Below, piece after piece: positions 9,023 to 38,289 of a stretch of DNA of 40,444 nucleotides. The DNA comes from a virus. Position 1 is the stretch's first letter. Each line of letters opens with the position of its first letter. The notes under the pieces were generated by a model. The model was not told the origin of the DNA, did not search any database, and worked only from the letters and a program-made list of their open reading frames with translations. The stretch lies in the IMG/VR virus record IMGVR_UViG_3300025018_000052, positions 1-40,444 of that record. One strand, 5' to 3'. Position numbers and translations under genes: made by a program.

Positions 9023-10063
9023 ATGAAGGAATACAGAATGGGGAGCGGTTTGTTCACACCAACATTTAGACAAATGGTGGACGATCTTACTCCAAAAACA
9101 CCAATTACTTACAGCGAAACGCTTAATATAGCCAATACGGCTTTTATTAAGGATGGTGCAGGTTCTAAAGGTGTGATCAGTTTGAAGGCTAAAAAAGTTT
9201 TGGACTTAACAGGTGTGAGGGTTGGATCTTTCTGGGGAAGGCCAGAAAACATGCAGTACGAAAAACAATTGCAAGCCTTGGTTAAAACGGATGGGTCGGC
9301 AACTCTTACTGTTTATGATGGATCTATTGATCTTGAGAAAATGTTTGAGAGTGTTACAAAAGGTCGATACATGGTAAAGGTTTACGACAATCAGGGACGG
9401 TCTCTTTATGGTTGGGTTGGTGGAATTGCTAAATCCGGAAACACTTATGTTTTTGATGTTTTTAATTCAGTTAGTTTAGCAACCCAAAATTGGTTTCAAG
9501 GAGACGCAACAGACTTTAGCTCAAGCCTTGCAACTGTTCAGGTTTACAAAAATACTTCGTCCATATTGTTTGGCTCTTCTGATACTTTTACAGAAGAGGT
9601 TCCATTAGGGGAAGACTTGGCTGAATTGATGGTTCTATCTTCTTTATCAGACGGACAATATGCAGTTAATTATGAAGAAGGTATTATATATTTTTCCAAA
9701 AAGAATGCAGATGACACGGAGGCTATTACTTACAAAACCTATGCGGTTTATCCTTTTGTTACATCTTCTGATGTTGATTCTGATCCCTCTCCGGCTTCTT
9801 TAGTAAGAACTCCGGGGACACACACTATAACTTTAGGTGCTGGTGCAACGGCCCTTAATCCTACAAGCCTTCCTGTTTATAAATTTACGGTTCAGAATCC
9901 AGCCGGAAACGCAGAGGTTTATGTTGGGGATTCTGGGGTTTTAACAACAACAGGTCAAACAATGTATGCAACAGGAACTTTTTCTGAAGAGTTTGTGGAT
10001 CTCAATCAGGTCTATGCAATTGGAACTCCTGGCCAAATAGTGAGGGTATTTTATACTAAATAA
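9023..10063 (+). CDS. Hypothetical virion structural protein
   Basis: 346-aa ORF inside the morphogenesis block with a beta-rich composition. No motif recognised. Confidence 0.45.
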   Translation: MKEYRMGSGLFTPTFRQMVDDLTPKTPITYSETLNIANTAFIKDGAGSKGVISLKAKKVLDLTGVRVGSFWGRPENMQYEKQLQALVKTDGSATLTVYDGSIDLEKMFESVTKGRYMVKVYDNQGRSLYGWVGGIAKSGNTYVFDVFNSVSLATQNWFQGDATDFSSSLATVQVYKNTSSILFGSSDTFTEEVPLGEDLAELMVLSSLSDGQYAVNYEEGIIYFSKKNADDTEAITYKTYAVYPFVTSSDVDSDPSPASLVRTPGTHTITLGAGATALNPTSLPVYKFTVQNPAGNAEVYVGDSGVLTTTGQTMYATGTFSEEFVDLNQVYAIGTPGQIVRVFYTK

Positions 10064-10073
10064 TTTAAAAAAT

Positions 10074-11153
10074 ATGTTTAAAAAATTAGTTTTATTTCTG
10101 ATATTATTATTAACACTTTCACAAAGTGGGCATGCAGTAAGTGTCAATAATTTTTTGGTCCCATGTGGTCCAACTGGGTTGTGTGCAACAACTCAATATA
10201 AGGATTTAGGAACGGACACTTCAAGGCTTGGAACAATTTATGCGGATAATATAAATATATCTACGGCTCTAGTTCTTGGTGGGGCGGTATCAGGCAATCT
10301 TGCAATGGGAGGCTTCAACATAACAAACGCTCGAAATGTTTACATGGACGCAGATAGCAATTCAGGATTCGGAAGTACAGCGGATAATGTTATTGACCTT
10401 TTTGCAAATGGTTTGTCTTATATTAAGTTTGGAATTAATACAATGGGCTTTCAAGGTGGCAGTCCGACAATTAGCACAATCTCAAATGCTTCGCTTGCAA
10501 TCGTACCAAACGGCTCAGGCAAAGTTAGAATCGGAGACGCCTATACAACGCCTTTAAGTTTATCTACAGACAATGATTCACTTCTAATCACTAAAGATAT
10601 TGAAATCGGAGACACAATCTTTACAGGCGGTCAAACAATGGCAACAAACCGTGGAGATGTACCTTGGATAACAATGACGACAACTTCGGCAAGTCCAGCA
10701 GGCACAGCTCATAGCTTACCGATTTTGAATAATGGTTTTTTGATGGGTAATTTTTACAGTGAAGCAGACGGTGCAGGAGGCTTACAGAACAGGGAATTAA
10801 GAGTCCCCGCTTTAAGGTCTTATGGAAGAATACAGGCAAAACAAGGAACAGATATCGCAAGTGCAACTAACATTGTAATTCCAACAGACGGAAATGTTTT
10901 TGAGCTTACAGGAACAACAAAAGTAGATTTAATATCTAATCTTGGTTGGCAAGAGGGTTCAGAAATTACTCTTGTATGTAATGAAAGCGTAACTATAGAC
11001 AATGGAACAGCGACAAGTGGAACGAATATAACAATTAAACTTGCAGGAGGTTCTGATTTATCTTGTACAGCAGGCGATGTTTTGAAGTTGACTTTATTGT
11101 CTACAACAGCAGGCGGACAAGCTTGGCTAGAAGTTTCGAGAAGCGTAAACTAA
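10074..11153 (+). CDS. Fibre-like protein with an N-terminal Sec-type signal peptide
   Basis: The N-terminus MFKKLVLFLILLLTLSQSGHA-VS has a basic n-region, a hydrophobic core and an A-x-A-like site. SRLGTIYADNINIS resembles a motif common in phage tail-fibre stems. Confidence 0.5.
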   Translation: MFKKLVLFLILLLTLSQSGHAVSVNNFLVPCGPTGLCATTQYKDLGTDTSRLGTIYADNINISTALVLGGAVSGNLAMGGFNITNARNVYMDADSNSGFGSTADNVIDLFANGLSYIKFGINTMGFQGGSPTISTISNASLAIVPNGSGKVRIGDAYTTPLSLSTDNDSLLITKDIEIGDTIFTGGQTMATNRGDVPWITMTTTSASPAGTAHSLPILNNGFLMGNFYSEADGAGGLQNRELRVPALRSYGRIQAKQGTDIASATNIVIPTDGNVFELTGTTKVDLISNLGWQEGSEITLVCNESVTIDNGTATSGTNITIKLAGGSDLSCTAGDVLKLTLLSTTAGGQAWLEVSRSVN

Positions 11154-19908: not shown

Positions 19909-22900
19909 ATGGTATTAAACTGGAAAGATCTTCAAAAAAAGAAAGATCAGTTAGTAAAAACGGTCAATGTTATTGGTACAGGTCTTGCAGAAACACAAAA
20001 GCAAGCTGATATAAAAAAATCAGCGAAAAAAATAACAGATGTTAGAACTACAAAGCAATATCCCGGGGTCCCTATCACTAAAATAACAAACACCCCAAAG
20101 CCTTTATATGGGAACACGAGCTTAAGTCCATCAATGGCGGAAAATGTTTTGATTAATAAAGGAATTACTCCTAGTCCGACAAATGTTAAAAATTTTTCGA
20201 TAAAAGAAGATCCTACAAAAGGTGTATTACCTTCTAGTTTGAAAAACGACAATCGATCTGCGAAACAGAAACAAGAAGACAGTGAGCGAGCAAAAGAATA
20301 TTACAATTTTTATAATACAAATATAAGGAGAGCTAAAGAGGCTTGGGATATGGGAAATGCTACAGTTTTAGGAATAAAATCTGGAACTATATTGAGAGCA
20401 AAAAAACTTATTCCAACTTCAATTAGAGCAATTGCTGAAAATATTAACATGGATCCGTTTGGGCAACTTGATATGTTTGGAAAAAGAAACATGTCAGAAC
20501 TTGAACAAGCAAGAGAAGAGTATTCAGTTATGAAAGGGGAAACGGAGGACGTTTATTACAACTCCACGCTTGCACGGAATCCTTTGTATAACTGGGCAAT
20601 GGACACAATAAAAGATGTTGAGATAGAGGATGAGGATATTAGAAGACTTGCAACAGAGGGAAAGAGTGAACTTGTTAAGGAGGTTTTCAACATAGCACAA
20701 TCTTCCGCTTCTTTTTTGGCTACGGTTGCGGCTACGGTTATAACTAAAAATCCTACAGCATTAGCCGCTTTTGGAACATCCCTAGACAGTCTTGATACTT
20801 ACAATGAGGCAAGAAAAACACAAAGTCCATCCGGAGCTCTTATGTCTGTAAGTGCAGACGCTTCTGTTACTTTTGCTTTGGAAAAAATAGGTTGGGACGC
20901 TCTTATGGATACTTGGTCCAAACCATTAGCAAAACAAATATCCGACAAAATTCCACTCTTTAAAAATATTACTTTAAAAGCCCCTGTCGCAACAGCCATT
21001 ACAGGCAATGCGGTGTCTTCTGGAATCACGGAAGGTGTTCAAGAGGTTGTTCAAACTATGTGGCAAAATGCCGTGGCAAAATTTGGATATGATCATACAC
21101 GGGGAATAATGGACGGAGTTGTTGAAGCTTTCTTACTCGGTTCAGTTTTGGGAGGTGGAGCAACGGCAGTTTATCAAACAAAACAAGCTATTGAAGACAA
21201 GGAGAATATAAATAAGGCCAAAGAAGAGTTGAAGTCAAAGCTTGGTGTTGATGACACTCAAGCTCAAGCTTTAGCTTCATACTTACACAGTTTTACAAGA
21301 ACAGAATCTGGAATGTTTAAAAACAAAGTAGATTCAATGTTTAAAGAAAAGAGAACAGCAAATTATAAAGGACTACAAGACGCAGGCTCAAGACCTGGCA
21401 TAGATATTCCCGGGGAATTGCCTGTTCCGGAAAAAGTTACAACAGCCCCAGTAGTGAGTAAAGAAAAAGAATACAAACCAACTAGAAAGGTCCCGGAGGC
21501 TCAAGCTTATAATAACAGTGATTTCTTTTATGAACTGGATTATCACGGGGAAAGAGTTACAACAGATGGTGTTGTTCTTGAATTTAATTCAACAGTTAGT
21601 GCACCAAAGAATAAAAACACTTCTGGTAGGGTTCTTACTCAAGAGAATATTGATAGAATAGTTCCGGAAGGCGATTTAAAACCATTAAGCACCAAAGCGG
21701 TTTATACAAATGGGGCTTCTCTTAATGGGAAAGGCAAACAAAAACTAGAGCTTGTTTGGATGGGAGAGCCTAGTTCGAAAGTAGGGGAAGGGGTTGTTAT
21801 TAAGAAACAAATTTTTGATTATATAAAAGGGAAATACCCTTTAGCAAGCTTTAAATATAACGGCAGTTCAGATAGTTCTATTGCGGTTTTTGAAGGGGAA
21901 AAGATTGTTTCCTTGTTCATGCCTTTGACTAATAACTTTCAAAATACTCAACTTGGGGAAGAAAGTGAGCTATATTGGAGAGCGGAGGAATTGACAGGTA
22001 ACTCAAATGTTGATAGAATAGAATCAGATTTAAAAGACAACACAAATGATACAAGTTCCAAAAGACAAATTTCCTCTCCTAGCGGAGTATCAGGAGAACA
22101 ATCCGGAGGGGTATATGCAGACAATCAACAATCTCCGGAAAGCGGACAGAGAACCCCTAGCCAAAGAGAGCGAATATTGGGGGCAGATCGAGAGCGATCT
22201 GGAACATCTAAGGGGGGCTTAAATAAAAAGGCTAAAGAACTTTTAGATTCTGGAAAAAAGCCAGAAGATTTTACCGATGAGGATATAGAGCTTTTGAAAA
22301 GTTATAGTGGAATGGGTGGATCTGGAGAAGCTGGGAGAGGTTTACTTGATGAATACTACACCCCTCCAAAAGTTATTGATAAGATGTGGGCTCTTGCAAG
22401 AAAGCATGGATTCACGGGCGGATCAGTTCTTGAGCCTAGTGCGGGAGTGGGTAGGTTTATTGATCGTGGACCGGATGAAAATGTTAAATATACGGCACTT
22501 GAGATAGATGATACATCTTCCAAAATTGCAAAAATAGTATTAGGAAAAAAAGCAGATGTTAAACAAATGCCTTTTGAGAATCTTTTTGTAACAGAAACTG
22601 GCAAAGCTATAGAAATAGAAAATACATACAATTTAATTATAGGAAACCCGCCATACGGAGAACACCGTGGGTATTATAAAGGGTTAGGGGAAGAATCAAA
22701 AATCTCTAAATATGAGGATTATTTCATTAAAAGGTCCCTAGATTTAGCAAAGGATAATGGCCTAGTTGTAATGGTGGTCCCTAGTGGATTTTTGAAAACG
22801 ACAGTGTCTTATTCAAAAAAACAAATAGCTAAAAGTGGGGAGCTTGTAGAGGCTTACCGTTTACCGGAAAAGATTTTTGACAAGACTTCTATTGGTACAG

Positions 22901-25900
22901 ATATTTTAGTATTTAAAAAGAATACTACTGCGGACGACAACCTTTTAGAGCAACGTCTTGATAGTTTAGCAGGAGATTCTTATTTTAAAGAAAATAAATC
23001 AAAAATTTTAGGAGAAACAAAAGAAAGAAAATCAAGATTTGGAAAGATGGAAGTGTATGTTACTGGGAATGAGGATGTTTTAGACAACATAGTATTAACA
23101 GAGTCTCAAGATAACGGACCGAAAGTTTTCAAGGAAGTTACTGAAAAGATAACTAAAAAGAAAAAAGCACTTGAAGGCACCGAATCAACAGCTAAAGTAG
23201 AGGAATACTCATTAAGAGAGGAAACAGGTCAATTGTTTAGCACAATGCACCTTACAGACGCTGATAAGAATATTTGGAGGAATAAGTCGGCTGATGGAAG
23301 TCTCGTTATCAAAAACTTAACAGGAGCTGAAATTAACACTCTTAATATATTTAACGGAAAATACTTTGATGACTTTGATTATTTACAGGGAAATATTTAC
23401 GAAAAAATAGACGCACTTGAAAATGAAAACATTTCTGAAGAGAAAAAAGACGAGCAAAGAGCAAAGCTTGAGAAAATTTTACCTAAGCCAAAGAAATTAG
23501 AGAACATCTATCTCAATCCTTTAGGGGATTTTGCTTCTAGTTTTAAATATGAAACCTCCACGGCTAGATCTGATGTAGAGACTCTTACTTTAAAAGAAGG
23601 ATTTCTTGATTATCTTAGAGGACTCCCTAGAGACGCTTTCGCACCTTCTGATATGTGGGAGACTATGGGGTATGTGAGGGGGGACCGAGTCAACACAAGA
23701 GGGGATGTTGTTTTGGCAAATACTATTAAGAAGAGAAGAAAACATGTTGCGGAAAAATTGTTTCCTAAATTTTTAGAAACTCTTGATAAAGACACTAAGA
23801 CTAAAATAGAAGATCAGTTCAATAAAGAAAAAAATGGTTTTGTTTCCCCGGATTACAAGAAGGTACCATTATTCGTAGATGGTCTTGATATGACTTTTGG
23901 GGGAAGGGGCTTGAAGATTGGGGAATATAAGATAGATTCTATTGGCTTTCTCTCAAATAGAGGAACAGGAATCAATGCAAATGGTGTGGGATTGGGTAAA
24001 ACAATGATGGCCATAATATCAACCGCTCAAGATGTTCAGAAGGGTTGGTATAAAAGACCTTTGTTTATTGTTCCAAAAGGAGTTTATAATAAATGGATTG
24101 AAGAGATCCGTTTACTTTTCCCTAAACAGAAAGTCGTAGGGCTTGGAAACTTGGGTGTGGGGTATGGCATAAAATCTGCGGACGATATTAAAGCTAAGAT
24201 CAATGATGGAGATTTTACTGTAATGACTTATGAGGCTATTGCTCAATTAGGTTTTAAACCAGAAACTCAATCAAGTCTACTTGGGGAAATTAATAATGCT
24301 TATACGGAAGTGGGAAATAAAACAGAAAGGGCAAGAGCAAAAAAAATGGAGCAAATTCAAGATATTTCAGGAAAAGGAAAAATCCGGGCGGAAATAAAAG
24401 TTGAGGATTTGGGCTTTGATAATTTAATCGTAGATGAGGCTCATAAGTTTAAGAACATTTTTTCAAGAGCTAAGGAAAACAAAGACAGCGACAGCAAAGC
24501 ACAATCGGGTAGATGGGGAGGAATAACAGGGCAGTCTTCCGCAAGGGGGGTTAAAATGTGGTTATTATCTCAATATGTTCAAAATAAAAACGACGGAAGA
24601 GGAGTTAAGTTATTGACAGCTACACCGTTCACAAACAACCCCTTGGAGTTTTACAATGTATTGTCTCTTGTTGCGATGAAGGACATGAAGGCAATGGGTG
24701 TAGATAACATTAATACCTTTATGGATACTTTTTTGAAGACCACTAAAAAGTATGTTGTAAAATCTGGAGGTAAATATGATTTGGCGGATGTTGTTGAAGA
24801 TTGGCAGAACAAGGATATTTTAAAGGGGCTTATAAAAAGATATATAGATTTCAAGGATGGAGAAGATTATGGAGTTATAAGGCCTACAAAATTTAAAAAA
24901 GACTACAGATTTAACGCTACAAAACAGCAACTTGAGTATTTGCAAAAAGCACAAGAACTCCTAGATCCCAAACTAAAAAACAAAGGGGGATCACTTATGT
25001 ATATAGATGAAGCAAAAAAAATAACACTTTCCCCTTATCTTTCAAGATACTACAACGGTCCATTGCCTACTCCAAAAGAATTTGTGGAATCTTCTCCAAA
25101 ACTAATGGGAATGATGACGATGATCAAGGCGAACAGAAAAAAAACAGGACAAGTTATTTATTTTCCTTATGAGGTTGATCAAATGCCTCTACTTCGAGAA
25201 TACCTAGTTGATGTGTTAAAATATAAACCATCGGAGGTTGGTATTATTCACGGGAAAATTGATGACAACGTAAGGGAAAGAGTCAAGAAAGATTTTAATT
25301 CAGGAAAAGTAAAGGTAATTATAGGATCAGACGCAATTAAAGAAGGGGTAGATTTACAAGAGAGGTCTACAGATCTATATCTTACATCTTACCCCTGGAC
25401 GCCTACAGACGTGATACAGGTTGAGGGTCGAATACATAGACAGGGAAATATTTATAAAAATGTAAGAATTAATTTTTTATCTTTAAAAGATTCTGTAGAT
25501 TCGTTTCTTTTTCAGAAGCTTGATACAAAAACTAAAAGACTTGCAAATGCAGACGCTATAACTCAAACACTTGAAGGGGACAACATGGACTATGAATCAA
25601 TGACATCTGATCTTATTACAGATCCAGCCTTTAAGCTTCAAGTGAAAACGGCAATTAAAAAAGAAAGGGCAGACACTAAAATTAATGGACTTAAAAGTGA
25701 AATAGCTTTACTGGAAGAACAGACTAAGAAATATAAGGAAGCAGAGGCGGAGATACAAGTTACTCAAGAGTGGCTTGATGATCCACGCAATGCCGAGTCT
25801 TGGAATATGGATAATTACAGAAAAAAGAACAAGAAATCAACTAAAACTCTTGAAACGCTAAAAGAAAGGAATGTTGATCCAGAAGTTAATCAGGCTAGAA

Positions 25901-28900
25901 TATCTGAACTCGAAAAAGTTTTAGAGGCTACAATTGCTAAAAACAAAGAATCAGAAGAACGGCTAAAAGAAGAATCGAAAAATTTACCGGAATTTATTGA
26001 GAAGGATCCGGAGCCAAACGACTTTAAGGCACTTGAAAAACAGCTTCTTGAAGAGAATAAAACTTTTATCGTTTTAAAAGGGAAAGATGAAGATCAGACC
26101 GTCAAGGCTTCAAAAGCTTCTTCCTTAGAAGAGAACGTTTTGCCTTCGGTCATGATGGAATCCAGCATAGAAAGTGAACCTTTAACAGGGGCGGATGTTC
26201 CGTCCTTAAAGAGTTCAGAGACCTTGCCGGATGAATCTTTGGAGAGCATTGATGAAAAATCAAAGACTCTTTCTTCCCAGAGAATGAAATTTCTTGAGAG
26301 ATTTGACATGGGCTATGGATTAGTTGACACTACAAGGATAGATGATTTTATTAGCTTTGTCAATACTAATGTTTCAGAATATGATCAGTCCGTCAAAGAT
26401 CTTACTATAAAAACTCAATCAGAGGCATATTTTTACAGGGTAAAAGAATCTAAGAGTGTGGCTTCAAAGCTTAAGAGAAAGAGAGAAAAGACACTTGGCA
26501 CTTTAAATGATATGATTGGAGGGACTATTGTTACTGAAAATATTGATAATGTTTTAGGTGAATACAAAAAAGACAATTCCGAAAAGAGTATTGATGATAT
26601 GAGGACTCGTCCTTCTATGTGGGGATATGATGGTGTTCATCTTGAGAAAGAATTATCTTCCGGGATGTTTACGGAGATACAAGTACATACAAGAGAAAAA
26701 CTTTACCAAAAAGAATACGCTCATACTATTTACGAAAAATACAGGGAATATTTTGAAAGCAATGAGGTAGTTGAACTTTCAGATCAAGCCTTAAAGGATA
26801 AGATGGGCGAGGCGGTATATTCTGAATATTTAAAAGATATTCAACTTTCTCGTGATGTTTATGCTGGGATAGTTCCGGTCCCTCAAGAATTTATCGACAA
26901 GGCAAATGAGAGAATTAATAAAAACAAGATTGTTTTAGAAGAGGAAGTATCAACAGAAAACAAAACGGAAAGCGTAATGACAGGCTCGGCACAAACAGTT
27001 GATGGATTAAAACCCGTCAAGGTATCAAAAATAACTAAGGACTTATCCTTAGTTGATGTTGGTGGTAAAGAGATGTTGACGGAGGCTAAGACAAGTGAAG
27101 AAATCAAAGAGGAAGTATCTAGTTTTATTGAAGATCAATCAAATATAAAAGAAGGGGATGTTGTGGAAATTAATGAAAAATCCCCGGATTTATCCCCCAT
27201 GGAAAAGCAGGCGGTTGTCGTTTCCGGAAATAAAGATATGTCGGTTGTAGAGGTTGATGGAGGCTTTAAGGTTGTCGAAAGCAAGGACTTAAAACCGCTA
27301 GAAATATCTGATGAAATTAAAGAGCCTAAAAAACCTAAAAGACTTAAAGTTGCAAATGAAAAGACAGCGATAGAAGATTTACCGCCGTCTCCTCCAGAAA
27401 GTGATTTACTTGAAACAGATGGTCCGGATGATGGAACTGTAGATTTTGATTTAACAAAGTTTGAAAGAATGAGAGTTATTGTTCAAGATAAAGCAATAGG
27501 GCTTGATAAAGCTCAAAAGATTATGGGAGAAGGGAAAAATGTTCAAGAAGATGTTGATATGTATATGGAGTACGAGCTTTATTCTGGAGCAGTAACAGCG
27601 GCTATAGAAAAATTTGAGAGAAACGAATGGAAGCCATTACAAGATGAACTCGTAAAATTTACCAGTCTCTCCCCAGATCATTCACAGCTAATACAGAATT
27701 ACTTGTGGCTTTCACATGCTGAAGAACGGAATAAAAATCACTATGATGGGGCGGCTGGAATAACGACAAAAGAAGCGAGGATGAAATTGAAAGAGTTAAA
27801 GCAATTACCGCAGTTCCCAGAAATGCAGAAAATAGCACAACAATTCCAATCTCTAGCGAAAAAACTTCCCGAATATTTGTATAAAAACGGGATGATAAAG
27901 CAGAAAGAGTATGAATCACTTTTGACATTGTATAAAAATTATATTCCTCTACAAAGGATATTACCAGACAATGGCGACTTTAGTCAAGCTTTAGGAATAG
28001 GAAAAGGGTTTGACACTCGTGGAACTGACATAAAAAAGGCTAAGGGAAGTGATTTAGAGGTTGCAAACATTTTAGAGTCAATTCGTTTGAACTGGGAAAG
28101 GGCTATTATAAGGGTCCATAAAAACAATGTAGGAAAGACGGTTTATAAGTTTGCTAAAGACTATAGTAAACTATCTTTGTTTAAATTGGTTCGTGGAAAA
28201 CTTAAGCTAATGGAAGTTGATGGGGATATAATAAGGACTATTGAGCCTCCTTCTGGGGATAATATCCTTACTGTAAAAATTGATGGAGTTCAAAAATACA
28301 TAAAAATAACAGATCCTACAGTTGCTAATGCTTTAAAGAATCTTGATTCTCAACCTATGAATGTTGCAATGAGGACTCTTTTATCTTTTACAAGATTTTA
28401 TTCAATGATCAATACTTCATTGAATCCAGAGTTTATCATAAGCAATGCAATTAAAGATATTCAGACGGCCTCTCTTAACACTTCTAAAGAGTTTGGGATG
28501 TTTGGCATGGCTCGTAATGCAAAAGTTTTTCCAGAGGCATATAAAGGAGTATTTGACGCCTTGAGGGGGAATGATACCACTATGGCTAAACTTTATAATC
28601 AGATGAGGGAACTCGGAGGTACTACGGGTTATTATAATTTATCGAACAGAGAAGAAATCGCAAACAAAATTAGAGAAGGAGAAGACGCTTTGACTCTTAA
28701 TAGTGTAGGTAAACTAAAAAGTGGTGGAAAAAAAGTTCTTGAGTTAATAGACTTTATCAATGATGTTGTAGAAAATGGAACACGTCTTGCGGTTTATAAG
28801 GTTGCTATTGATCAAGGTTTTTCTCCAAAGAAAGCCGCTCAATTAGCGAAAAATGCAACTGTTAATTTTAACAAGAAAGGAACTATTGGTCCGGGCCTTA

Positions 28901-29997
28901 ATGCTCTTTACGCATTTTCAAATGCTTCAATACAGGGATCTGCGAATGTAATTAAAACTCTTTCAAATCCTAAGAGCTTTGCAAAAATTACAACATTAAT
29001 ATCTGTTGTAAGTGCATTACTTCAATCTTGGAATAGGGCTATTGATGAGGAAGGGTATGAAAAAATAGACTCGTCGATCCGTGAATCAAACTGGGTATTT
29101 ATGGTTGGAGGAGGGAATTACATCAAATTAGGGCTTCCTTATGGATATAATGTAATAAAAGTTACGGCAGATAATATTTATGAGCTTTCTATAGGAAAGA
29201 CTGTTGCTATGGATAGTTTTAAATCTGTCTCGGGGGCTATGATTAATGCTTATAATCCTGTTGGTGGAGCTGATTTATTCAATGCTTATGTGCCTACATT
29301 CTTTAGGCCAATACAAGAAGTTTATGTTAATAAAGGTTGGCACGGAGGGAATATAGCCCCAATGAACATGACTGGGGTTAAGGAGAGTTTAAACTATTCT
29401 GAAAATGAAAATCCGATCTTCGTTAATTTGTCTAAGTATATGAGCAAATTTACAGGTGGAAGTTATGGAAGGAGGGGAGTTTTGGAAGTTTCTCCAGCTG
29501 GGATTGAATATTTATGGAATCAATATACAGGTGGTGTGGGACGGTTTATAATGGGAAATGCTAAGACTGTAGTCAATCTTGCAACTGATCCAGAAAACAT
29601 TGAGACAAAAGATATTCCTTTTTGGAGAAAAGTTGTTGGAAAGGTTGATGTCGAAAGGTACAACAGAAATTATATTTATGATATAATTGATAAATCTAAA
29701 AAGACTCCTTTAACAGAAGACGAAAAGATGGATTTCATGAGGGTATTAAAAGAAGAAGGGGAAAACAAAAGAATAACAATGAAAGAGGCTAAAGACTATA
29801 TGAATAAAGCTAAAAGCGGACAAGAAGACCTTACACAGACTAAAAAAGTTGTAGATTATATTGAGCGTCAAAATTGGTCCGAGGAAAAACTTAATCAGTT
29901 TCTTAATGAAAAACTAACAGATAACTCTTGGACCAAAGCTCAAGGATTAGGAACATTCACTAAAACCCAAATAAAGATGATTAGGAGCGAGTTGTAA
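19909..29997 (+). CDS. Giant polyvalent protein (3362 aa): N6-adenine DNA methyltransferase, SNF2-family helicase, RelA/SpoT-like nucleotidyltransferase and a large C-terminal module
   Basis: A single uninterrupted ORF. MTase at about nt 22340-22925: YYTPP, motif I LEPSAGVGRF, motif IV NPPYG. SNF2 helicase at about nt 23960-25480: GVGLGKT, VDEAHKFKN, LLTATPFTNNPLEFYN, QVEGRIHRQGN. RSH-like domain at about nt 26422-26760: RVKESKSVASKLKRK, NDMIGGTIV, WGYDGVHLE, TEIQVHT, AHTIYEKYR. Confidence 0.85.
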   Translation: MVLNWKDLQKKKDQLVKTVNVIGTGLAETQKQADIKKSAKKITDVRTTKQYPGVPITKITNTPKPLYGNTSLSPSMAENVLINKGITPSPTNVKNFSIKEDPTKGVLPSSLKNDNRSAKQKQEDSERAKEYYNFYNTNIRRAKEAWDMGNATVLGIKSGTILRAKKLIPTSIRAIAENINMDPFGQLDMFGKRNMSELEQAREEYSVMKGETEDVYYNSTLARNPLYNWAMDTIKDVEIEDEDIRRLATEGKSELVKEVFNIAQSSASFLATVAATVITKNPTALAAFGTSLDSLDTYNEARKTQSPSGALMSVSADASVTFALEKIGWDALMDTWSKPLAKQISDKIPLFKNITLKAPVATAITGNAVSSGITEGVQEVVQTMWQNAVAKFGYDHTRGIMDGVVEAFLLGSVLGGGATAVYQTKQAIEDKENINKAKEELKSKLGVDDTQAQALASYLHSFTRTESGMFKNKVDSMFKEKRTANYKGLQDAGSRPGIDIPGELPVPEKVTTAPVVSKEKEYKPTRKVPEAQAYNNSDFFYELDYHGERVTTDGVVLEFNSTVSAPKNKNTSGRVLTQENIDRIVPEGDLKPLSTKAVYTNGASLNGKGKQKLELVWMGEPSSKVGEGVVIKKQIFDYIKGKYPLASFKYNGSSDSSIAVFEGEKIVSLFMPLTNNFQNTQLGEESELYWRAEELTGNSNVDRIESDLKDNTNDTSSKRQISSPSGVSGEQSGGVYADNQQSPESGQRTPSQRERILGADRERSGTSKGGLNKKAKELLDSGKKPEDFTDEDIELLKSYSGMGGSGEAGRGLLDEYYTPPKVIDKMWALARKHGFTGGSVLEPSAGVGRFIDRGPDENVKYTALEIDDTSSKIAKIVLGKKADVKQMPFENLFVTETGKAIEIENTYNLIIGNPPYGEHRGYYKGLGEESKISKYEDYFIKRSLDLAKDNGLVVMVVPSGFLKTTVSYSKKQIAKSGELVEAYRLPEKIFDKTSIGTDILVFKKNTTADDNLLEQRLDSLAGDSYFKENKSKILGETKERKSRFGKMEVYVTGNEDVLDNIVLTESQDNGPKVFKEVTEKITKKKKALEGTESTAKVEEYSLREETGQLFSTMHLTDADKNIWRNKSADGSLVIKNLTGAEINTLNIFNGKYFDDFDYLQGNIYEKIDALENENISEEKKDEQRAKLEKILPKPKKLENIYLNPLGDFASSFKYETSTARSDVETLTLKEGFLDYLRGLPRDAFAPSDMWETMGYVRGDRVNTRGDVVLANTIKKRRKHVAEKLFPKFLETLDKDTKTKIEDQFNKEKNGFVSPDYKKVPLFVDGLDMTFGGRGLKIGEYKIDSIGFLSNRGTGINANGVGLGKTMMAIISTAQDVQKGWYKRPLFIVPKGVYNKWIEEIRLLFPKQKVVGLGNLGVGYGIKSADDIKAKINDGDFTVMTYEAIAQLGFKPETQSSLLGEINNAYTEVGNKTERARAKKMEQIQDISGKGKIRAEIKVEDLGFDNLIVDEAHKFKNIFSRAKENKDSDSKAQSGRWGGITGQSSARGVKMWLLSQYVQNKNDGRGVKLLTATPFTNNPLEFYNVLSLVAMKDMKAMGVDNINTFMDTFLKTTKKYVVKSGGKYDLADVVEDWQNKDILKGLIKRYIDFKDGEDYGVIRPTKFKKDYRFNATKQQLEYLQKAQELLDPKLKNKGGSLMYIDEAKKITLSPYLSRYYNGPLPTPKEFVESSPKLMGMMTMIKANRKKTGQVIYFPYEVDQMPLLREYLVDVLKYKPSEVGIIHGKIDDNVRERVKKDFNSGKVKVIIGSDAIKEGVDLQERSTDLYLTSYPWTPTDVIQVEGRIHRQGNIYKNVRINFLSLKDSVDSFLFQKLDTKTKRLANADAITQTLEGDNMDYESMTSDLITDPAFKLQVKTAIKKERADTKINGLKSEIALLEEQTKKYKEAEAEIQVTQEWLDDPRNAESWNMDNYRKKNKKSTKTLETLKERNVDPEVNQARISELEKVLEATIAKNKESEERLKEESKNLPEFIEKDPEPNDFKALEKQLLEENKTFIVLKGKDEDQTVKASKASSLEENVLPSVMMESSIESEPLTGADVPSLKSSETLPDESLESIDEKSKTLSSQRMKFLERFDMGYGLVDTTRIDDFISFVNTNVSEYDQSVKDLTIKTQSEAYFYRVKESKSVASKLKRKREKTLGTLNDMIGGTIVTENIDNVLGEYKKDNSEKSIDDMRTRPSMWGYDGVHLEKELSSGMFTEIQVHTREKLYQKEYAHTIYEKYREYFESNEVVELSDQALKDKMGEAVYSEYLKDIQLSRDVYAGIVPVPQEFIDKANERINKNKIVLEEEVSTENKTESVMTGSAQTVDGLKPVKVSKITKDLSLVDVGGKEMLTEAKTSEEIKEEVSSFIEDQSNIKEGDVVEINEKSPDLSPMEKQAVVVSGNKDMSVVEVDGGFKVVESKDLKPLEISDEIKEPKKPKRLKVANEKTAIEDLPPSPPESDLLETDGPDDGTVDFDLTKFERMRVIVQDKAIGLDKAQKIMGEGKNVQEDVDMYMEYELYSGAVTAAIEKFERNEWKPLQDELVKFTSLSPDHSQLIQNYLWLSHAEERNKNHYDGAAGITTKEARMKLKELKQLPQFPEMQKIAQQFQSLAKKLPEYLYKNGMIKQKEYESLLTLYKNYIPLQRILPDNGDFSQALGIGKGFDTRGTDIKKAKGSDLEVANILESIRLNWERAIIRVHKNNVGKTVYKFAKDYSKLSLFKLVRGKLKLMEVDGDIIRTIEPPSGDNILTVKIDGVQKYIKITDPTVANALKNLDSQPMNVAMRTLLSFTRFYSMINTSLNPEFIISNAIKDIQTASLNTSKEFGMFGMARNAKVFPEAYKGVFDALRGNDTTMAKLYNQMRELGGTTGYYNLSNREEIANKIREGEDALTLNSVGKLKSGGKKVLELIDFINDVVENGTRLAVYKVAIDQGFSPKKAAQLAKNATVNFNKKGTIGPGLNALYAFSNASIQGSANVIKTLSNPKSFAKITTLISVVSALLQSWNRAIDEEGYEKIDSSIRESNWVFMVGGGNYIKLGLPYGYNVIKVTADNIYELSIGKTVAMDSFKSVSGAMINAYNPVGGADLFNAYVPTFFRPIQEVYVNKGWHGGNIAPMNMTGVKESLNYSENENPIFVNLSKYMSKFTGGSYGRRGVLEVSPAGIEYLWNQYTGGVGRFIMGNAKTVVNLATDPENIETKDIPFWRKVVGKVDVERYNRNYIYDIIDKSKKTPLTEDEKMDFMRVLKEEGENKRITMKEAKDYMNKAKSGQEDLTQTKKVVDYIERQNWSEEKLNQFLNEKLTDNSWTKAQGLGTFTKTQIKMIRSEL

Positions 29998-31112: not shown

Positions 31113-31369
31113 AGTGTGTTTAAAAATTTAGTAAAGTTTTCAACATCTTTTGCCGGAGTGTCTTTATAAAAAATAATAACTTTTCCTAAAGGACTTTCTT
31201 TATAAAACATTTTACGAGTGATGTTTAATCCGTATATTTCCCCAAAAGTTTTCTTGAATCCATATTTTAGAAAAAATTTTAGGATATAAAAAGAATATTT
31301 ATAAGACCCATACTTAATGGCTGAAAGTTTTGTAATTTCTGTAATGTTTTTTTTAAAGTATTTTTTCAT
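31109..31369 (-). CDS. Hypothetical protein
   Basis: 86-aa ORF with a 4-nt overlap with the downstream gene and a 17-nt overlap with the upstream gene, on the same strand as its neighbours. Confidence 0.4.
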   Translation of the reverse strand: MKKYFKKNITEITKLSAIKYGSYKYSFYILKFFLKYGFKKTFGEIYGLNITRKMFYKESPLGKVIIFYKDTPAKDVENFTKFLNTL

Positions 31370-31832
31370 TCAAAATATAAGTTAAAATATGCTCAATAAC
31401 TTTACAATTAAAACCGTTCCCTAAACATTTATATCTTTGAGTATTCGAAATGCCTTCGGTGTAATTATCTGGTAAGGACTGTAGGCGTTCGCACTCTATC
31501 GGTGTTAATTTTCGGATAAAAAAATCCTCTTGAACCATTGAATCGGTTTGAACTGTTGTCAATGAATTTGCTTTGTCGGTCCTGTTATATTCTGGCTGTT
31601 TCCCTTCTCCCCTATTTCGCAAAGCAACGGGGGATACGAGCAATTGACCCGCAACCGCACTTGAACATTGCGGATTCGTTCCGAGCCTTTTTATTTCTGG
31701 AAAGTTTTTTTCAGAAATTTGAATTGCGTATTTATCGACCTCGCTTGAATAATATTCCTCAACTGGAATGTTTAGGTTTTTAAGAGCTTGTCTTGCGATT
31801 GATATTCCATCAAAGAGTGATAATACGTCCAT
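31353..31832 (-). CDS. Truncated C5-cytosine DNA methyltransferase-like protein (N- and C-terminal motifs only; core missing)
   Basis: 159 aa. Motif-I-like VLSLFDGIS and SSEVDKYA at the N-terminus. Motif IX/X-like RKLTPIECERLQSLPDNY ... CLGNGFNCKVIEHI at the C-terminus. Only a scrambled motif-IV-like GTNPQCSSAVAGQ lies between them. No ENV or QxRxR motifs. Confidence 0.6.
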   Translation of the reverse strand: MDVLSLFDGISIARQALKNLNIPVEEYYSSEVDKYAIQISEKNFPEIKRLGTNPQCSSAVAGQLLVSPVALRNRGEGKQPEYNRTDKANSLTTVQTDSMVQEDFFIRKLTPIECERLQSLPDNYTEGISNTQRYKCLGNGFNCKVIEHILTYILNEKIL

Positions 31833-32283
31833 TGTGTTTTTTTAAAGTTGGATAACAATTGTAAAAAGCTAACAAACTGGGAAAAGGGGCGGATCCACTT
31901 CCTTTTTGTAGCCCCTCAAATTTGAGCCTTCCTTTTATAAAAGCAAGATGAGCTTTTCCCAAAACATAATCATGAAAATATTTAGTGTCTGTCCTTGAAG
32001 GCATTAGTAATACAATTGTTGCTTTTGAACTTTCTTCGTAGCATTTTTTAATCCACTTTGGCATATCTCGTCCATAAGGTGGATTACAAAAGACTGTTTC
32101 GTTTTCCCATGATTGTATGAGACCATCTTGTTCTTTTGTGAAAAATTTTCGACACTTTGCATTGAGCGGTGTAGCACATGGATCAAGCGTAAAATTGTAA
32201 GACTCGTTTAATTCATTAAAAAGTCCTTGTGGTGTTCCCCATTCTACAGACTCGCTACTTAACATTGTTTTTATATTTTTCAT
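31810..32283 (-). CDS. dam: Phage Dam-type DNA N6-adenine methyltransferase
   Basis: 157 aa. EWGTPQGLFNELN..FTLDPCA..NAKC ... VFCNPPYGR ... LLMPSRTDTKYFH ... FIKGRLKF follows the small phage Dam family layout. Confidence 0.8.
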   Translation of the reverse strand: MKNIKTMLSSESVEWGTPQGLFNELNESYNFTLDPCATPLNAKCRKFFTKEQDGLIQSWENETVFCNPPYGRDMPKWIKKCYEESSKATIVLLMPSRTDTKYFHDYVLGKAHLAFIKGRLKFEGLQKGSGSAPFPSLLAFYNCYPTLKKHNGRIITL

Positions 32284-35885: not shown

Positions 35886-37118
35886 CTATATCTTGCTTCC
35901 GATGTCTGAGTATGTCATTATTTTGTGCTCAAAATAGAGAAGATGATCAAATATCACTGGTCCGTTTCTATTCTTTGCTATGATAAAATTAGCGGAGGTT
36001 GTTGTTTTATCTTCCCTATGCAAAATAAAAACAAGATCTGCGTCTTGTTCTATGTTTCCGGAGTCTCTAAGATCTGCGAGAGATGGAATCCCTGTTGCTC
36101 GTTTCACTTGCGAAAGTGCAATTACAGGAGCCCCAATTTCCAGCGCTATTTCTTTGAGGTTTCGTGTTATGTTTCCGATCCTGTCATTATTTGTTATGTT
36201 TCCATTGGTTGAATCTTTGAGATACTGGATGTAGTCAACTACAATTAGATTTGGTTTTCTGTGTCCGGATTCTTGCCGGCATAATCTAGCAATATCTGCG
36301 GATGTCATGGCCCCGGCTTCAATGAATTTTAGGTTTTGGCCATAGCGGTTTATTTCATTTTTTGAGCGTAAAATAGCGTCGTCCGCTTGTCCGTTCTTGA
36401 AAAGGCTTGCGGGGGTGTTTGTTATTTGGCTCAAGGCTCTTGTTATGAGCTCGTTTTTTGTCATTTCAGCGGAAAAGAATAAAACATTTTGATCATACCG
36501 TGCAGCATTAACAGCGATGTTAAGAGCCAAGGCGGTTTTTCCCACGGATGTTTTTGCACCCAAAATAACTAAACTTCCGGGCAAGAGCGGAGCTTCCATG
36601 TCTATCACATCAAAGCCTGTTGGAATGCCTATAGACTTGTTTTCATTGAATCTTTTTTTGTTTTCTTCGTACTGGGCCATATATGCTTCCATTGAATCCG
36701 ATAAGCTAACAGCCTTTCCAGTAGGGAGGGAAACATCAATTTTTTTAAGGTCCTCAAGGTAAGAATCAACATCTTCATCAATTTTGTTTGTTTTGAGTTT
36801 TATCTTGTTCTTGATGTTTTCTTTAGCCAAAAAAAGAACATAATCGCCAAAATACCTCGGATCACAATCTTCCGGAGTGGTAAGAACTTTTGACACCTCG
36901 GAAATTTTTCCGCCTTTTTCCATAAACTTTGCACCAAAAAGCGGAAGGTTTATTGATGTTTTTTCTTTTCTCATTTCGGTTAAAACCTCGTAGGCCAATC
37001 GGTAGTTTGAGTGTTTGAATAGCTCGGGAAGTAAAGAAAATTTTCCTAACAGATCAGGAAACATCACAATTGATCCAATTGTGAATCCTTCAATCTCTAA
37101 TGTTTTTTTGTAGTCCAT
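35886..37118 (-). CDS. dnaB: DnaB-family replicative DNA helicase
   Basis: 410 aa. Walker A GAKTSVGKTALALN, Walker B LIVVDYIQYL, ALSQVKR, and GNIEQDADLVFILHRED (RecA-like core of DnaB). Confidence 0.9.
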   Translation of the reverse strand: MDYKKTLEIEGFTIGSIVMFPDLLGKFSLLPELFKHSNYRLAYEVLTEMRKEKTSINLPLFGAKFMEKGGKISEVSKVLTTPEDCDPRYFGDYVLFLAKENIKNKIKLKTNKIDEDVDSYLEDLKKIDVSLPTGKAVSLSDSMEAYMAQYEENKKRFNENKSIGIPTGFDVIDMEAPLLPGSLVILGAKTSVGKTALALNIAVNAARYDQNVLFFSAEMTKNELITRALSQITNTPASLFKNGQADDAILRSKNEINRYGQNLKFIEAGAMTSADIARLCRQESGHRKPNLIVVDYIQYLKDSTNGNITNNDRIGNITRNLKEIALEIGAPVIALSQVKRATGIPSLADLRDSGNIEQDADLVFILHREDKTTTSANFIIAKNRNGPVIFDHLLYFEHKIMTYSDIGSKI

Positions 37119-37121
37119 GTT

Positions 37122-38081
37122 TTAAAATTTATTAAATTTATCTTCGATGGATTCAACTGTAGATCCTTCCGGTTCTTTTCCGAGCAAAGGCTTGATGTTG
37201 TAGTACAAGAAACGAATAGACGAACATCTTCCTTTTGTCCAACTATTTTGCAGTAATTCTTTAAATGCTTTCTCAAAAATTTCTTTTCCGTGTTTCTCGT
37301 AGAGTAAGACCAAGTGCCGTCCGTACATCCTTTGCGTTTTTGAGGGGTCCGCAAAATAAGTCAAACCAAGTCTACGACGAATCGCTTCCAACATCAAGGT
37401 TATTTTTTCATTTCCAAAAATCGCCGGCCGGGGGGGTAGGGGGGGTGTTTTTGAATCCGATACATTTCCTGTAAGAAAAAAAATTTTAAGAGGTCGCCAG
37501 TGTATTAATATATACATAGCGTTAGCTATGGATATATTAATACATGTATTTAATATATATATATATAAATACATTACAGCGTTTTTATTTTTTACGAATT
37601 GCCCGGTAAATCTTAAAAAAATGACAAGCTCTTTTGGGCTAAGAGCCTTCAATAACTCAATCGGTGGGGGGGTAAATCTTGAATTTAAAAACATCCTTTT
37701 TGTGTTTCCATAGCCAATAATCTTTACTTTATTTGACTGAATCTGATTTTTGTTTTCACTTTTAGAGGGTGGGGGGGTAAATCTTGAATTTTTGACGGTG
37801 TTTTTTTCTTTTGTAGCCTTCAATAACTCAATCGGTGGGGGGGTAAATCTTGAATTTTTAATAGTATATAAATTGCCTTTTTTCTCTACATTAAAGGCAA
37901 ACTCTGTATTAGCAGACCTTTCTTCTGTTAAGTAAAGCCATTTTTTAAGCAAAAACTTTGAAATACCTGTTTCCCTAGAGGCTTTTGTAATTGACAGCAT
38001 GTTGTTTTGTTTTTGTGCACACAAAACAAGCCCTATAATGAGCCAGTACTGGGAATCGAGAATGGAGGTTTTATGATTCAT
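37122..38081 (-). CDS. Putative replication initiator/organiser whose coding sequence contains the iteron array
   Basis: 319 aa, the first gene of the minus arm, immediately upstream of dnaB. HTH-like N-terminus SITKASRETGISKFLLKKW. The peptide repeat NSRFTPPP(IELLKA) occurs three times and is encoded by the DNA repeats. The central segment is translated from an AT-rich tract. Confidence 0.55.
   Translation of the reverse strand: MNHKTSILDSQYWLIIGLVLCAQKQNNMLSITKASRETGISKFLLKKWLYLTEERSANTEFAFNVEKKGNLYTIKNSRFTPPPIELLKATKEKNTVKNSRFTPPPSKSENKNQIQSNKVKIIGYGNTKRMFLNSRFTPPPIELLKALSPKELVIFLRFTGQFVKNKNAVMYLYIYILNTCINISIANAMYILIHWRPLKIFFLTGNVSDSKTPPLPPRPAIFGNEKITLMLEAIRRRLGLTYFADPSKTQRMYGRHLVLLYEKHGKEIFEKAFKELLQNSWTKGRCSSIRFLYYNIKPLLGKEPEGSTVESIEDKFNKF
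37645..37686. repeat. Iteron-like 42-bp repeat, copy 1
   Basis: gccttcaataactcaatcggtgggggggtaaatcttgaattt, identical to 37816-37857. Confidence 0.9.
37768..37791. repeat. Iteron-like repeat, core-only copy
   Basis: ggtgggggggtaaatcttgaattt is identical to the 3' 24 bp of the 42-bp repeat. Confidence 0.85.
37816..37857. repeat. Iteron-like 42-bp repeat, copy 2
   Basis: Identical to 37645-37686. Confidence 0.9.
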
Positions 38082-38100
38082 GTTTATTTTTACGCTTTTA

Positions 38101-38129
38101 TTATTAATCGAATTTAAAAATTTGACAAT
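38101..38129 (-). promoter_or_regulatory. Candidate leftward promoter (TTGTCA-17-AATAAT) for the replication arm
   Basis: Read on the reverse complement. Its -35 overlaps the -35 of the rightward promoter by 5 bp. The -10 is weak and the leader to the ATG at 38081 is very short. Confidence 0.25.
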
Positions 38130-38151
38130 TGAATTTTAAAAAAATAGAATG
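38123..38151 (+). promoter_or_regulatory. Near-consensus sigma70-type promoter (TTGACA-17-TAGAAT) facing groES and the morphogenesis arm
   Basis: ttgaca at 38123-38128, a 17-nt spacer, and tagaat at 38146-38151, about 140 nt upstream of the groES start. Confidence 0.5.
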
Positions 38152-38169
38152 AAATTACAAAATAAGTCT

Positions 38170-38214
38170 CAAAAACCCCAACGTGTTGCTATAAAAAACT
38201 TCCTGGGGTTTTTG
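38170..38214 (+). terminator. Terminator-like leader hairpin downstream of the rightward promoter
   Basis: Perfect 11-bp inverted repeat caaaaacccca ... tggggtttttg with a 23-nt loop. The 3' arm itself ends in five T (ttttt, 38209-38213) and is followed by gaaaataaaaaaa. Confidence 0.35.
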
Positions 38215-38228
38215 AAAATAAAAAAACT

Positions 38229-38261
38229 CTTGATTTTTTCCAAAACAAGAATAAAATCAAG
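38229..38261 (+). promoter_or_regulatory. 9-bp perfect inverted repeat (CTTGATTTT-N15-AAAATCAAG) just upstream of groES
   Basis: Read directly. It sits 29 nt before the groES ATG and could be an operator or an RNA hairpin. Confidence 0.35.
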
Positions 38262-38289
38262 TCAACTTTTAAACATTTAAAATTTTTTT

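Follow-up and report, generated by a model that had tools for sequence, protein, structure and literature searches.

We analyzed 40,444 nucleotides (nt) of the IMG/VR virus record IMGVR_UViG_3300025018_000052 (hereafter the window), which, given an overlap of 127 nt between their ends, represent a circle of 40,317 bp, and conclude that the segment at 37422–37857 is probably a theta-type replication origin situated within its own initiator gene, in the middle part that encodes the linker. This gene, taken from the list of open reading frames (ORFs), occupies 37122–38081 on the minus strand, encodes a putative replisome-organiser-like initiator of 319 amino acids (aa) and contains the whole putative origin. 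It opens the leftward transcription arm, and the genes for GroES and GroEL diverge from it across the intergenic region 38082–38289. Immediately downstream, at 35886–37118 on the minus strand, lies the gene for a DnaB-family replicative helicase (Pfam DnaB_C, E = 1.2e-54; PHROG 19, E = 1e-67), which starts 3 nt past the initiator stop codon with no gene between. The initial annotation of this DNA had described a repeat array within the ORF directly upstream of dnaB, beside the point where the two arms diverge, and had likened it to the origin of phage λ. The position of the array is borne out by the DnaB_C match, the 3-nt gap and the divergent chaperonin genes, and the λ-like layout by the order in which N-terminal domain, iterons, AT-rich tract and C-terminal domain follow one another along the gene. 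This λ-like reading is supported both by the anatomy of the segment and by comparison: with the one relative found (JGI contig L001), in the use of codons, and with the family to which the C-terminal domain belongs.

The array comprises four iterons on the minus strand. A 10-nt core, AAGATTTACC on that strand, occurs four times within 250 nt, at 37605–37614, 37671–37680, 37776–37785 and 37842–37851; outside the array, a single isolated exact copy is present in 40 kb, at 27374. A longer core of 21 nt, GGGGGGGTAAATCTTGAATTT, is found exactly three times, at 37666, 37771 and 37837, and nowhere else, against a chance expectation of 0.01. Numbered in the direction of transcription, iteron 1 (37815–37857; core 37842–37851), which encodes NSRFTPPPIELLKA, and iteron 3 (37644–37686; core 37671–37680) are long forms identical to each other over 43 nt, iteron 2 (37768–37791; core 37776–37785) is a short, 24-nt form, and iteron 4 (37605–37620) consists of the core only, TTTTTAAGATTTACC, and adjoins the AT-rich tract. 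Among all direct repeats of the genome, the one spaced by 171 nt is the strongest. The cores lie 66, 105 and 66 bp apart and are followed by a C run; the core sequence, AAGATTTACCCCCCC, lacks dyad symmetry, and all copies are direct. The long repeats had been annotated as 42 bp, at 37645–37686 and 37816–37857; they are present, but each begins one nucleotide earlier, at 37644 and 37815. The 24-bp core copy at 37768–37791 is exactly as first described. Between iterons 3 and 4, at 37626–37648 on the minus strand, we also noted a terminator-like hairpin with a T run (AGGCTCTTAGCCCAAAAGAGCTT GTCATTTTTT), which is partly made of the flank of a long repeat and whose conservation in L001 looks weak.

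Iteron 4 is followed in the direction of transcription, on the promoter-distal side, by an AT-rich tract at 37499–37585, the presumed DNA unwinding element, which is built of two adjoining palindromes (37501–37544 and 37545–37578). Its G+C content is 17.5% (37499–37578). The first palindrome is an inverted repeat of 20 nt (37501–37520/37525–37544) with 95% complementarity and the second is centred on (AT)n, in agreement with the AT-rich stretch, (AT)n and near-palindromes first reported. When the tract is folded as single-stranded DNA, a pair of hairpins results in each genome (z = −6.5 and −7.1), and one compensatory double substitution in a palindrome arm distinguishes the window from L001. 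As protein, the tract translates to an odd hydrophobic stretch.

A GC-rich block, CGCCGGCCGGGGGGGTAGGGGGGG, lies at 37422–37445 (plus strand) and encodes the Pro-rich linker PPLPPRP, using the rare codon CCC four times. It holds the only canonical G-quadruplex motif of the genome (one match in a motif scan of 40.3 kb), and L001 has the orthologous motif, at 10631–10664, in the equivalent position and strand with respect to the gene. The five runs of seven G that had been pointed out are the only G7 runs in the window, and every one of them falls within 37430–37843. A Pro-rich linker before the C-terminal domain is seen in several members of its family too, so the block could act at the protein level, at the DNA level, or at both. 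Two degenerate repeat copies had also been proposed; that at 37605–37620 is real and carries an exact 10-nt core, whereas the one at 37439–37458 can be aligned only with an indel and is not kept in L001, which has G runs and no iteron core at that place. It is therefore probably not a fifth iteron, and we rejected it as such; it forms part of the separate G-rich block.

A search of 5.8 billion proteins returned a single homologue of the initiator, P0002 (59% identity), encoded on L001, where the gene order is the same: GroEL, GroES, divergent initiator and DnaB. The comparison rests on two genomes, the window and L001, a further contig (L044) being the same genome as the window. No more relatives were found in viral, metagenome and genome collections with protein patterns, the iteron sequence, the AT-rich tract or the spaced three-iteron pattern, and a tblastn comparison with 50,697 phage records gave no match for the protein. 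The four iteron cores begin at gene nt 232, 298, 403 and 469 in the window and L001 alike, and TTTTTAAGATTTACC of iteron 4 is kept. Loss of the repeats from a genome that retained the protein had been named at the outset as grounds for giving up the origin; L001 keeps the four cores as well as the AT-rich tract. At conserved residues, identical codons are used at 26 of 27 positions in the AT-rich tract (codons 161–194) and at 36 of 65 in the C-terminal domain (codons 222–319; Fisher p = 6e-5), and the same test applied to the whole origin segment versus the two flanking domains gave p = 2e-5. The synonymous drift in the C-terminal domain shows a constraint that, to judge from its codons, acts at the protein level. 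Along the 5.3-kb GroEL–initiator–DnaB alignment, which is 65% identical overall, the most conserved 60-nt interval is 37533–37592, in the AT-rich tract (95%), and the third most conserved is 37656–37715, over iteron 3 (88%). The long iterons show 0 or 1 difference within a genome and 9–10 of 43 between genomes, as would be expected if the sites are homogenised or co-evolve with the protein that binds them.

In all iteron copies Thr is encoded by ACC (6.5% of Thr codons) and Pro by CCC (10.5% of Pro codons), the rarest synonymous codons of the genome for these two residues. Because the rarest codons recur in every copy, the repeats are DNA elements and not merely peptide repeats. Iteron 4 retains the DNA core alone, and its peptide, FLRFTG, is different. 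Taken together, the fixed core positions, the frozen synonymous codons, the identity of the 60-nt intervals, the rare codons and the fourth copy that keeps only the DNA core show that both the repeats and the AT-rich tract are under constraint as DNA. The segment is also kept as a coding sequence. The two indels that separate it from L001 are each 3 nt long; in both genomes the gene frame is free of stop codons over the origin segment (codons 76–221), where the five remaining frames contain 3–15, and of 2000 dinucleotide-preserving shuffles of the segment not one stayed open. The open frame, the lack of stops and the 3-nt indels therefore indicate selection for the repeats and the AT-rich tract to be translated.

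The two ends of the protein differ in their relatives. The N-terminal domain (aa 1–75; 37857–38081, minus strand) is presumed to be an iteron-binding helix-turn-helix (HTH) with a β-hairpin wing. AlphaFold2 assigned to it helices at residues 31–38 and 42–56 and strands at 64–68 and 71–75, with a pLDDT of about 50; two short helices and a β-hairpin are compatible with a winged HTH, for which the model is weak evidence. The same domain of the L001 orthologue gave sub-threshold HTH matches (E = 0.06–0.19). Two sequences in all represent this domain among the 5.8 billion proteins, and neither the whole protein nor its N-terminal 79 aa had a significant match in Pfam or PHROG. The full-length AlphaFold2 model was poor (pLDDT 43) and was left out of the fold search.

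The C-terminal helical domain (aa 222–319; 37125–37418, minus strand), the presumed recruiter of a helicase or a loader, was delimited by profile search. With a profile made from the two sequences, 233 of 1.84 billion representative proteins matched at E ≤ 1e-3, all of them to residues ~205–310 and at the C-terminus of proteins of ~250 aa. Family members matched the two-sequence profile at E = 1e-14 to 1e-21, with window residues 222–303 aligned (alignment A2); a local search back with the C-terminal profile yielded 150 proteins, and a search with the A2 profile 53 at E ≤ 1e-8. The family domain is helical, spans ~85 aa and has the consensus YGNExINxML...R.YGKH...NCNSIKY.Y..IKGF (P0004–P0151, alignment A2). 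The N-terminal domains of its members match PHROGs for DnaD-like helicase loader, replication initiation O-like and primosomal proteins, and the Pfam families Phage_rep_org_N, DUF1376, DUF6291 and Phage_rep_O (PF04492), the Phage_rep_O member being named by its source 'phage replication O-like protein O'. The C-terminal domain is thus joined to at least five different initiator-type N-terminal domains. Because the N-terminal domains of these relatives match initiator families, the window protein is a predicted modular phage initiator, with an N-terminal domain that lacks known relatives and a C-terminal domain that is widespread but unannotated. The core of the C-terminal domain was modelled by AlphaFold2 with a pLDDT of about 90; it had no significant match by PDB sequence profile, by Foldseek against PDB or in BFVD, and no Pfam model covers it. 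A new domain family could be defined from it.

Compared with this family, the window protein has a much longer linker, of ~145 aa, which is constrained as DNA. Members are ~250 aa long and are usually followed by a small unknown gene, unlike the window protein, which has 319 aa and is followed by DnaB. Repeats are found in other genes of this kind: tandem repeats with a period of 11–12 nt are present in the gene upstream of DnaB in the more distant phages L002 and L003, and mid-gene tandem repeats in three members that carry the C-terminal domain (L009, L045 and L048), while three others show nothing clear. In-gene repeat arrays are common, but not universal, in this class of gene.

The order of the elements is that of the λ origin, in which four iterons of 18 bp precede an AT-rich tract of 38 bp within gene O (PMC3349717, PMC7466680). 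As in λ and the lambdoid and Stx phages, the window origin sits in the middle of the initiator gene, between the parts encoding the N- and C-terminal domains (codons 76–200 of 319), and is translated; four iterons with G/C tracts are followed, in the direction of transcription, by an AT-rich tract (PMC3349717, PMC7466680), and the initiator gene heads the replication genes of its operon. The differences concern the parts. No homology could be detected between the N-terminal domain and Phage_rep_O (PF04492), to which λ O belongs. The window iterons are direct, asymmetric and spread over ~250 bp, whereas those of λ are near-palindromes of 18–19 bp, each binding an O dimer, within ~90 bp. The AT-rich tract is longer, at ~85 bp, and made of two specific palindromes. 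The gene downstream encodes a DnaB-type helicase, and not, as in λ, a P-type loader for the host helicase. The G-rich block with its G-quadruplex motif, which flanks the AT-rich tract, sets the window apart from all the known systems considered here.

In Bacillus phage SPP1, oriL lies in gene 38 and combines iterons (AB boxes) with an adjoining AT-rich unwinding element; the phage has its own DnaB-type helicase and an initiator without an AAA+ domain (PMC5737612). The window shares with SPP1 the in-gene iterons and AT-rich element, the phage-encoded DnaB-type helicase and an initiator that lacks an AAA+ domain (PMC5737612). It differs in having no gene at the place of a loader between initiator and helicase (in SPP1 the organiser is G38P, the loader G39P and the helicase G40P), in an N-terminal domain without a match to the Phage_rep_org_N/G38P family, and in that a search with the 10-nt core found no second copy of the origin in the window.

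The direct succession of initiator and phage DnaB-type helicase recalls Salmonella phage P22, whose genes 18 and 12 encode an O-like initiator with an in-gene origin and then a DnaB-type helicase, with no loader gene between. No sequence relationship to gp18 was detected, and the phage lineage is unrelated, the best match of the window DnaB in cultured phages being at most 30% identical. Iteron plasmids of the RepA/Pi/TrfA kind have Rep proteins with WH1–WH2 domains (Rep_3 and similar), ~22-bp tandem iterons outside the rep gene, and DnaA boxes. In the window, unlike in these plasmids, there is no Rep-family match, the repeats lie inside the gene, and the origin segment contains no DnaA box, nor are DnaA boxes enriched in the genome.

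From these features we infer iteron binding, melting of the AT-rich tract, helicase recruitment and use of the segment as an origin. The 319-aa protein would bind the four direct iterons through its N-terminal HTH domain, and the nucleoprotein complex would destabilise the adjoining AT-rich twin palindrome on the promoter-distal side. The C-terminal domain would then bring in the phage DnaB-type helicase, either directly or through a partner to which it would bind, and host primase and polymerase would complete initiation. Transcription of the initiator gene from 38082–38289 would run through the origin, as it does in λ. PHROG scans of GroES and of ten ORFs in the initiator-side arm gave matches to methyltransferase, nuclease and GroES only, with no recognisable polymerase or primase among them.

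DNA-level constraint alone does not name a process, and the segment might instead be another cis element, such as a set of autoregulatory operators, an intragenic transcriptional roadblock, or a pac, partition or resolution site, with another protein binding to it. Twin palindromes do resemble the binding sites of dimeric proteins, and the terminator-like hairpin between iterons 3 and 4 would suit a role of this kind. We nevertheless consider this explanation unlikely. The presence of both direct repeats and an AT-rich tract within the gene that immediately precedes the one for the replicative helicase is the signature of phage origins (PMC7466680, PMC5737612), the encoded protein carries the C-terminal domain of an initiator family, and the terminase genes are ~3 kb away, in the other arm.

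The repeats might also matter as peptides (RFTPPPIELLKA), for instance as a motif that docks the helicase or a host protein, in which case the DNA would be repetitive only because 171 nt had been duplicated in frame, and no origin would lie here. They are indeed in frame and in the same codon phase, their peptides are conserved in both genomes, and the Pro-rich linkers of other family members would be in keeping with a function of the linker as protein. Against such a function, Thr and Pro are encoded by their rarest codons in each of the copies, synonymous sites are far more conserved in the repeat and AT-rich segment than in the C-terminal domain, and the fourth copy preserves the DNA core with another peptide (FLRFTG). 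A peptide function would, in addition, leave the nearly invariant AT-rich twin palindrome unexplained, and we regard it as very unlikely.

The remaining alternative concerns the intergenic region. This control region between the initiator gene and GroES (38082–38289) contains two overlapping promoter-like sites that share a −35 region, TTGACA-17-TAGAAT on the plus strand (38122–38150) and TTGTCA-17-AATAAT on the minus strand (38128–38100); σ70 rules may not hold in the host. The motif ATTGTCAAATTT of this region is kept in L001. Its G+C content, 14–16%, is below that of the in-gene tract. A perfect 12-nt inverted repeat, TCAAAAACCCCA/TGGGGTTTTTGA, is present at 38169–38215, and in the same place L001 (about 9860–9930) has a different pair, AAAAGCTCCCC/GGGGAGCTTTT. 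Because the pairs of both genomes are perfectly complementary, the stem has been kept through two-sided changes; an operator or a hairpin in a leader RNA is a possible role. That replication initiates elsewhere, for example here, and that the in-gene repeats are auxiliary or vestigial sites for the initiator would agree with the very low G+C content and the conserved inverted repeat, but is highly improbable, as the region shows much weaker conservation than the in-gene tract, its conserved parts look like promoter elements, it contains no iteron cores, and the genome shows no enrichment in DnaA boxes.

Several observations weigh against the assignment of 37422–37857 as an origin. The comparison is limited to two genomes, and the high local DNA identity could in principle reflect a patch of recent recombination. 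The N-terminal domain has no significant match to a DNA-binding family, and was modelled poorly. The iterons are widely separated (66–105 bp) and lack the dyad symmetry of the λ iterons. In six other members of the C-terminal-domain family the next gene encodes a small unknown protein and not DnaB; these members rule out that the domain is always paired with a phage DnaB and leave its partner uncertain. Finally, a plot of GC skew on the circle, proposed at the outset as a check, does show a turn, but this turn coincides with the switch in gene orientation. The skew tracks gene orientation and is locally shifted to positive values by the G runs of the origin itself, and for these reasons we did not retain it as independent evidence.

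A more specific version of the origin assignment is that the AT-rich tract and the G block work through DNA structure, beyond generic easy melting. The twin palindrome might extrude as two hairpins or a cruciform, GGGGGGGTAGGGGGGG might fold into a G-quadruplex on the displaced strand, and both structures might hold the origin open or mark the strand onto which the helicase is loaded. We offer this as a doubtful proposal; if true, it would represent a structured-DNA origin design that has not been described for λ-type phages.

The rightward arm, which diverges from the initiator gene, begins with the genes for a phage GroES (38290–38586, plus strand, 98 aa; PHROG co-chaperonin, E = 3e-6) and a phage GroEL (38600–40240, plus strand, 546 aa; Cpn60_TCP1 match on the L044 and L001 copies), an arrangement that is kept in L001. 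The terminase genes, on this other arm, are ~3 kb off on the circle. A single ORF at 19909–29997 (plus strand, 3362 aa) fills a quarter of the genome, and its cut orthologue in L001 has Pfam matches to Helicase_C and LPD38. Two ORFs on the minus strand, 31353–31832 and 31810–32283, overlap by 23 nt and both match DNA methyltransferase PHROGs, the upstream one covering profile positions 55–205 of 345 in phrog_111; they may represent a split or frameshifted gene.

The origin that this phage very probably carries inside its initiator gene is a well-supported example of a known design and not a new one, and the knowledge of how phage origins are organised is unchanged by this case. What it provides is a confident and testable origin annotation for an uncultured phage lineage without cultured relatives. 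It also presents one sequence under two constraints, that of origin DNA and that of translatability, with forced rare codons and frozen synonymous sites as the outcome, and it defines a widespread, unannotated C-terminal domain of phage initiators, found in ~230 representative proteins.

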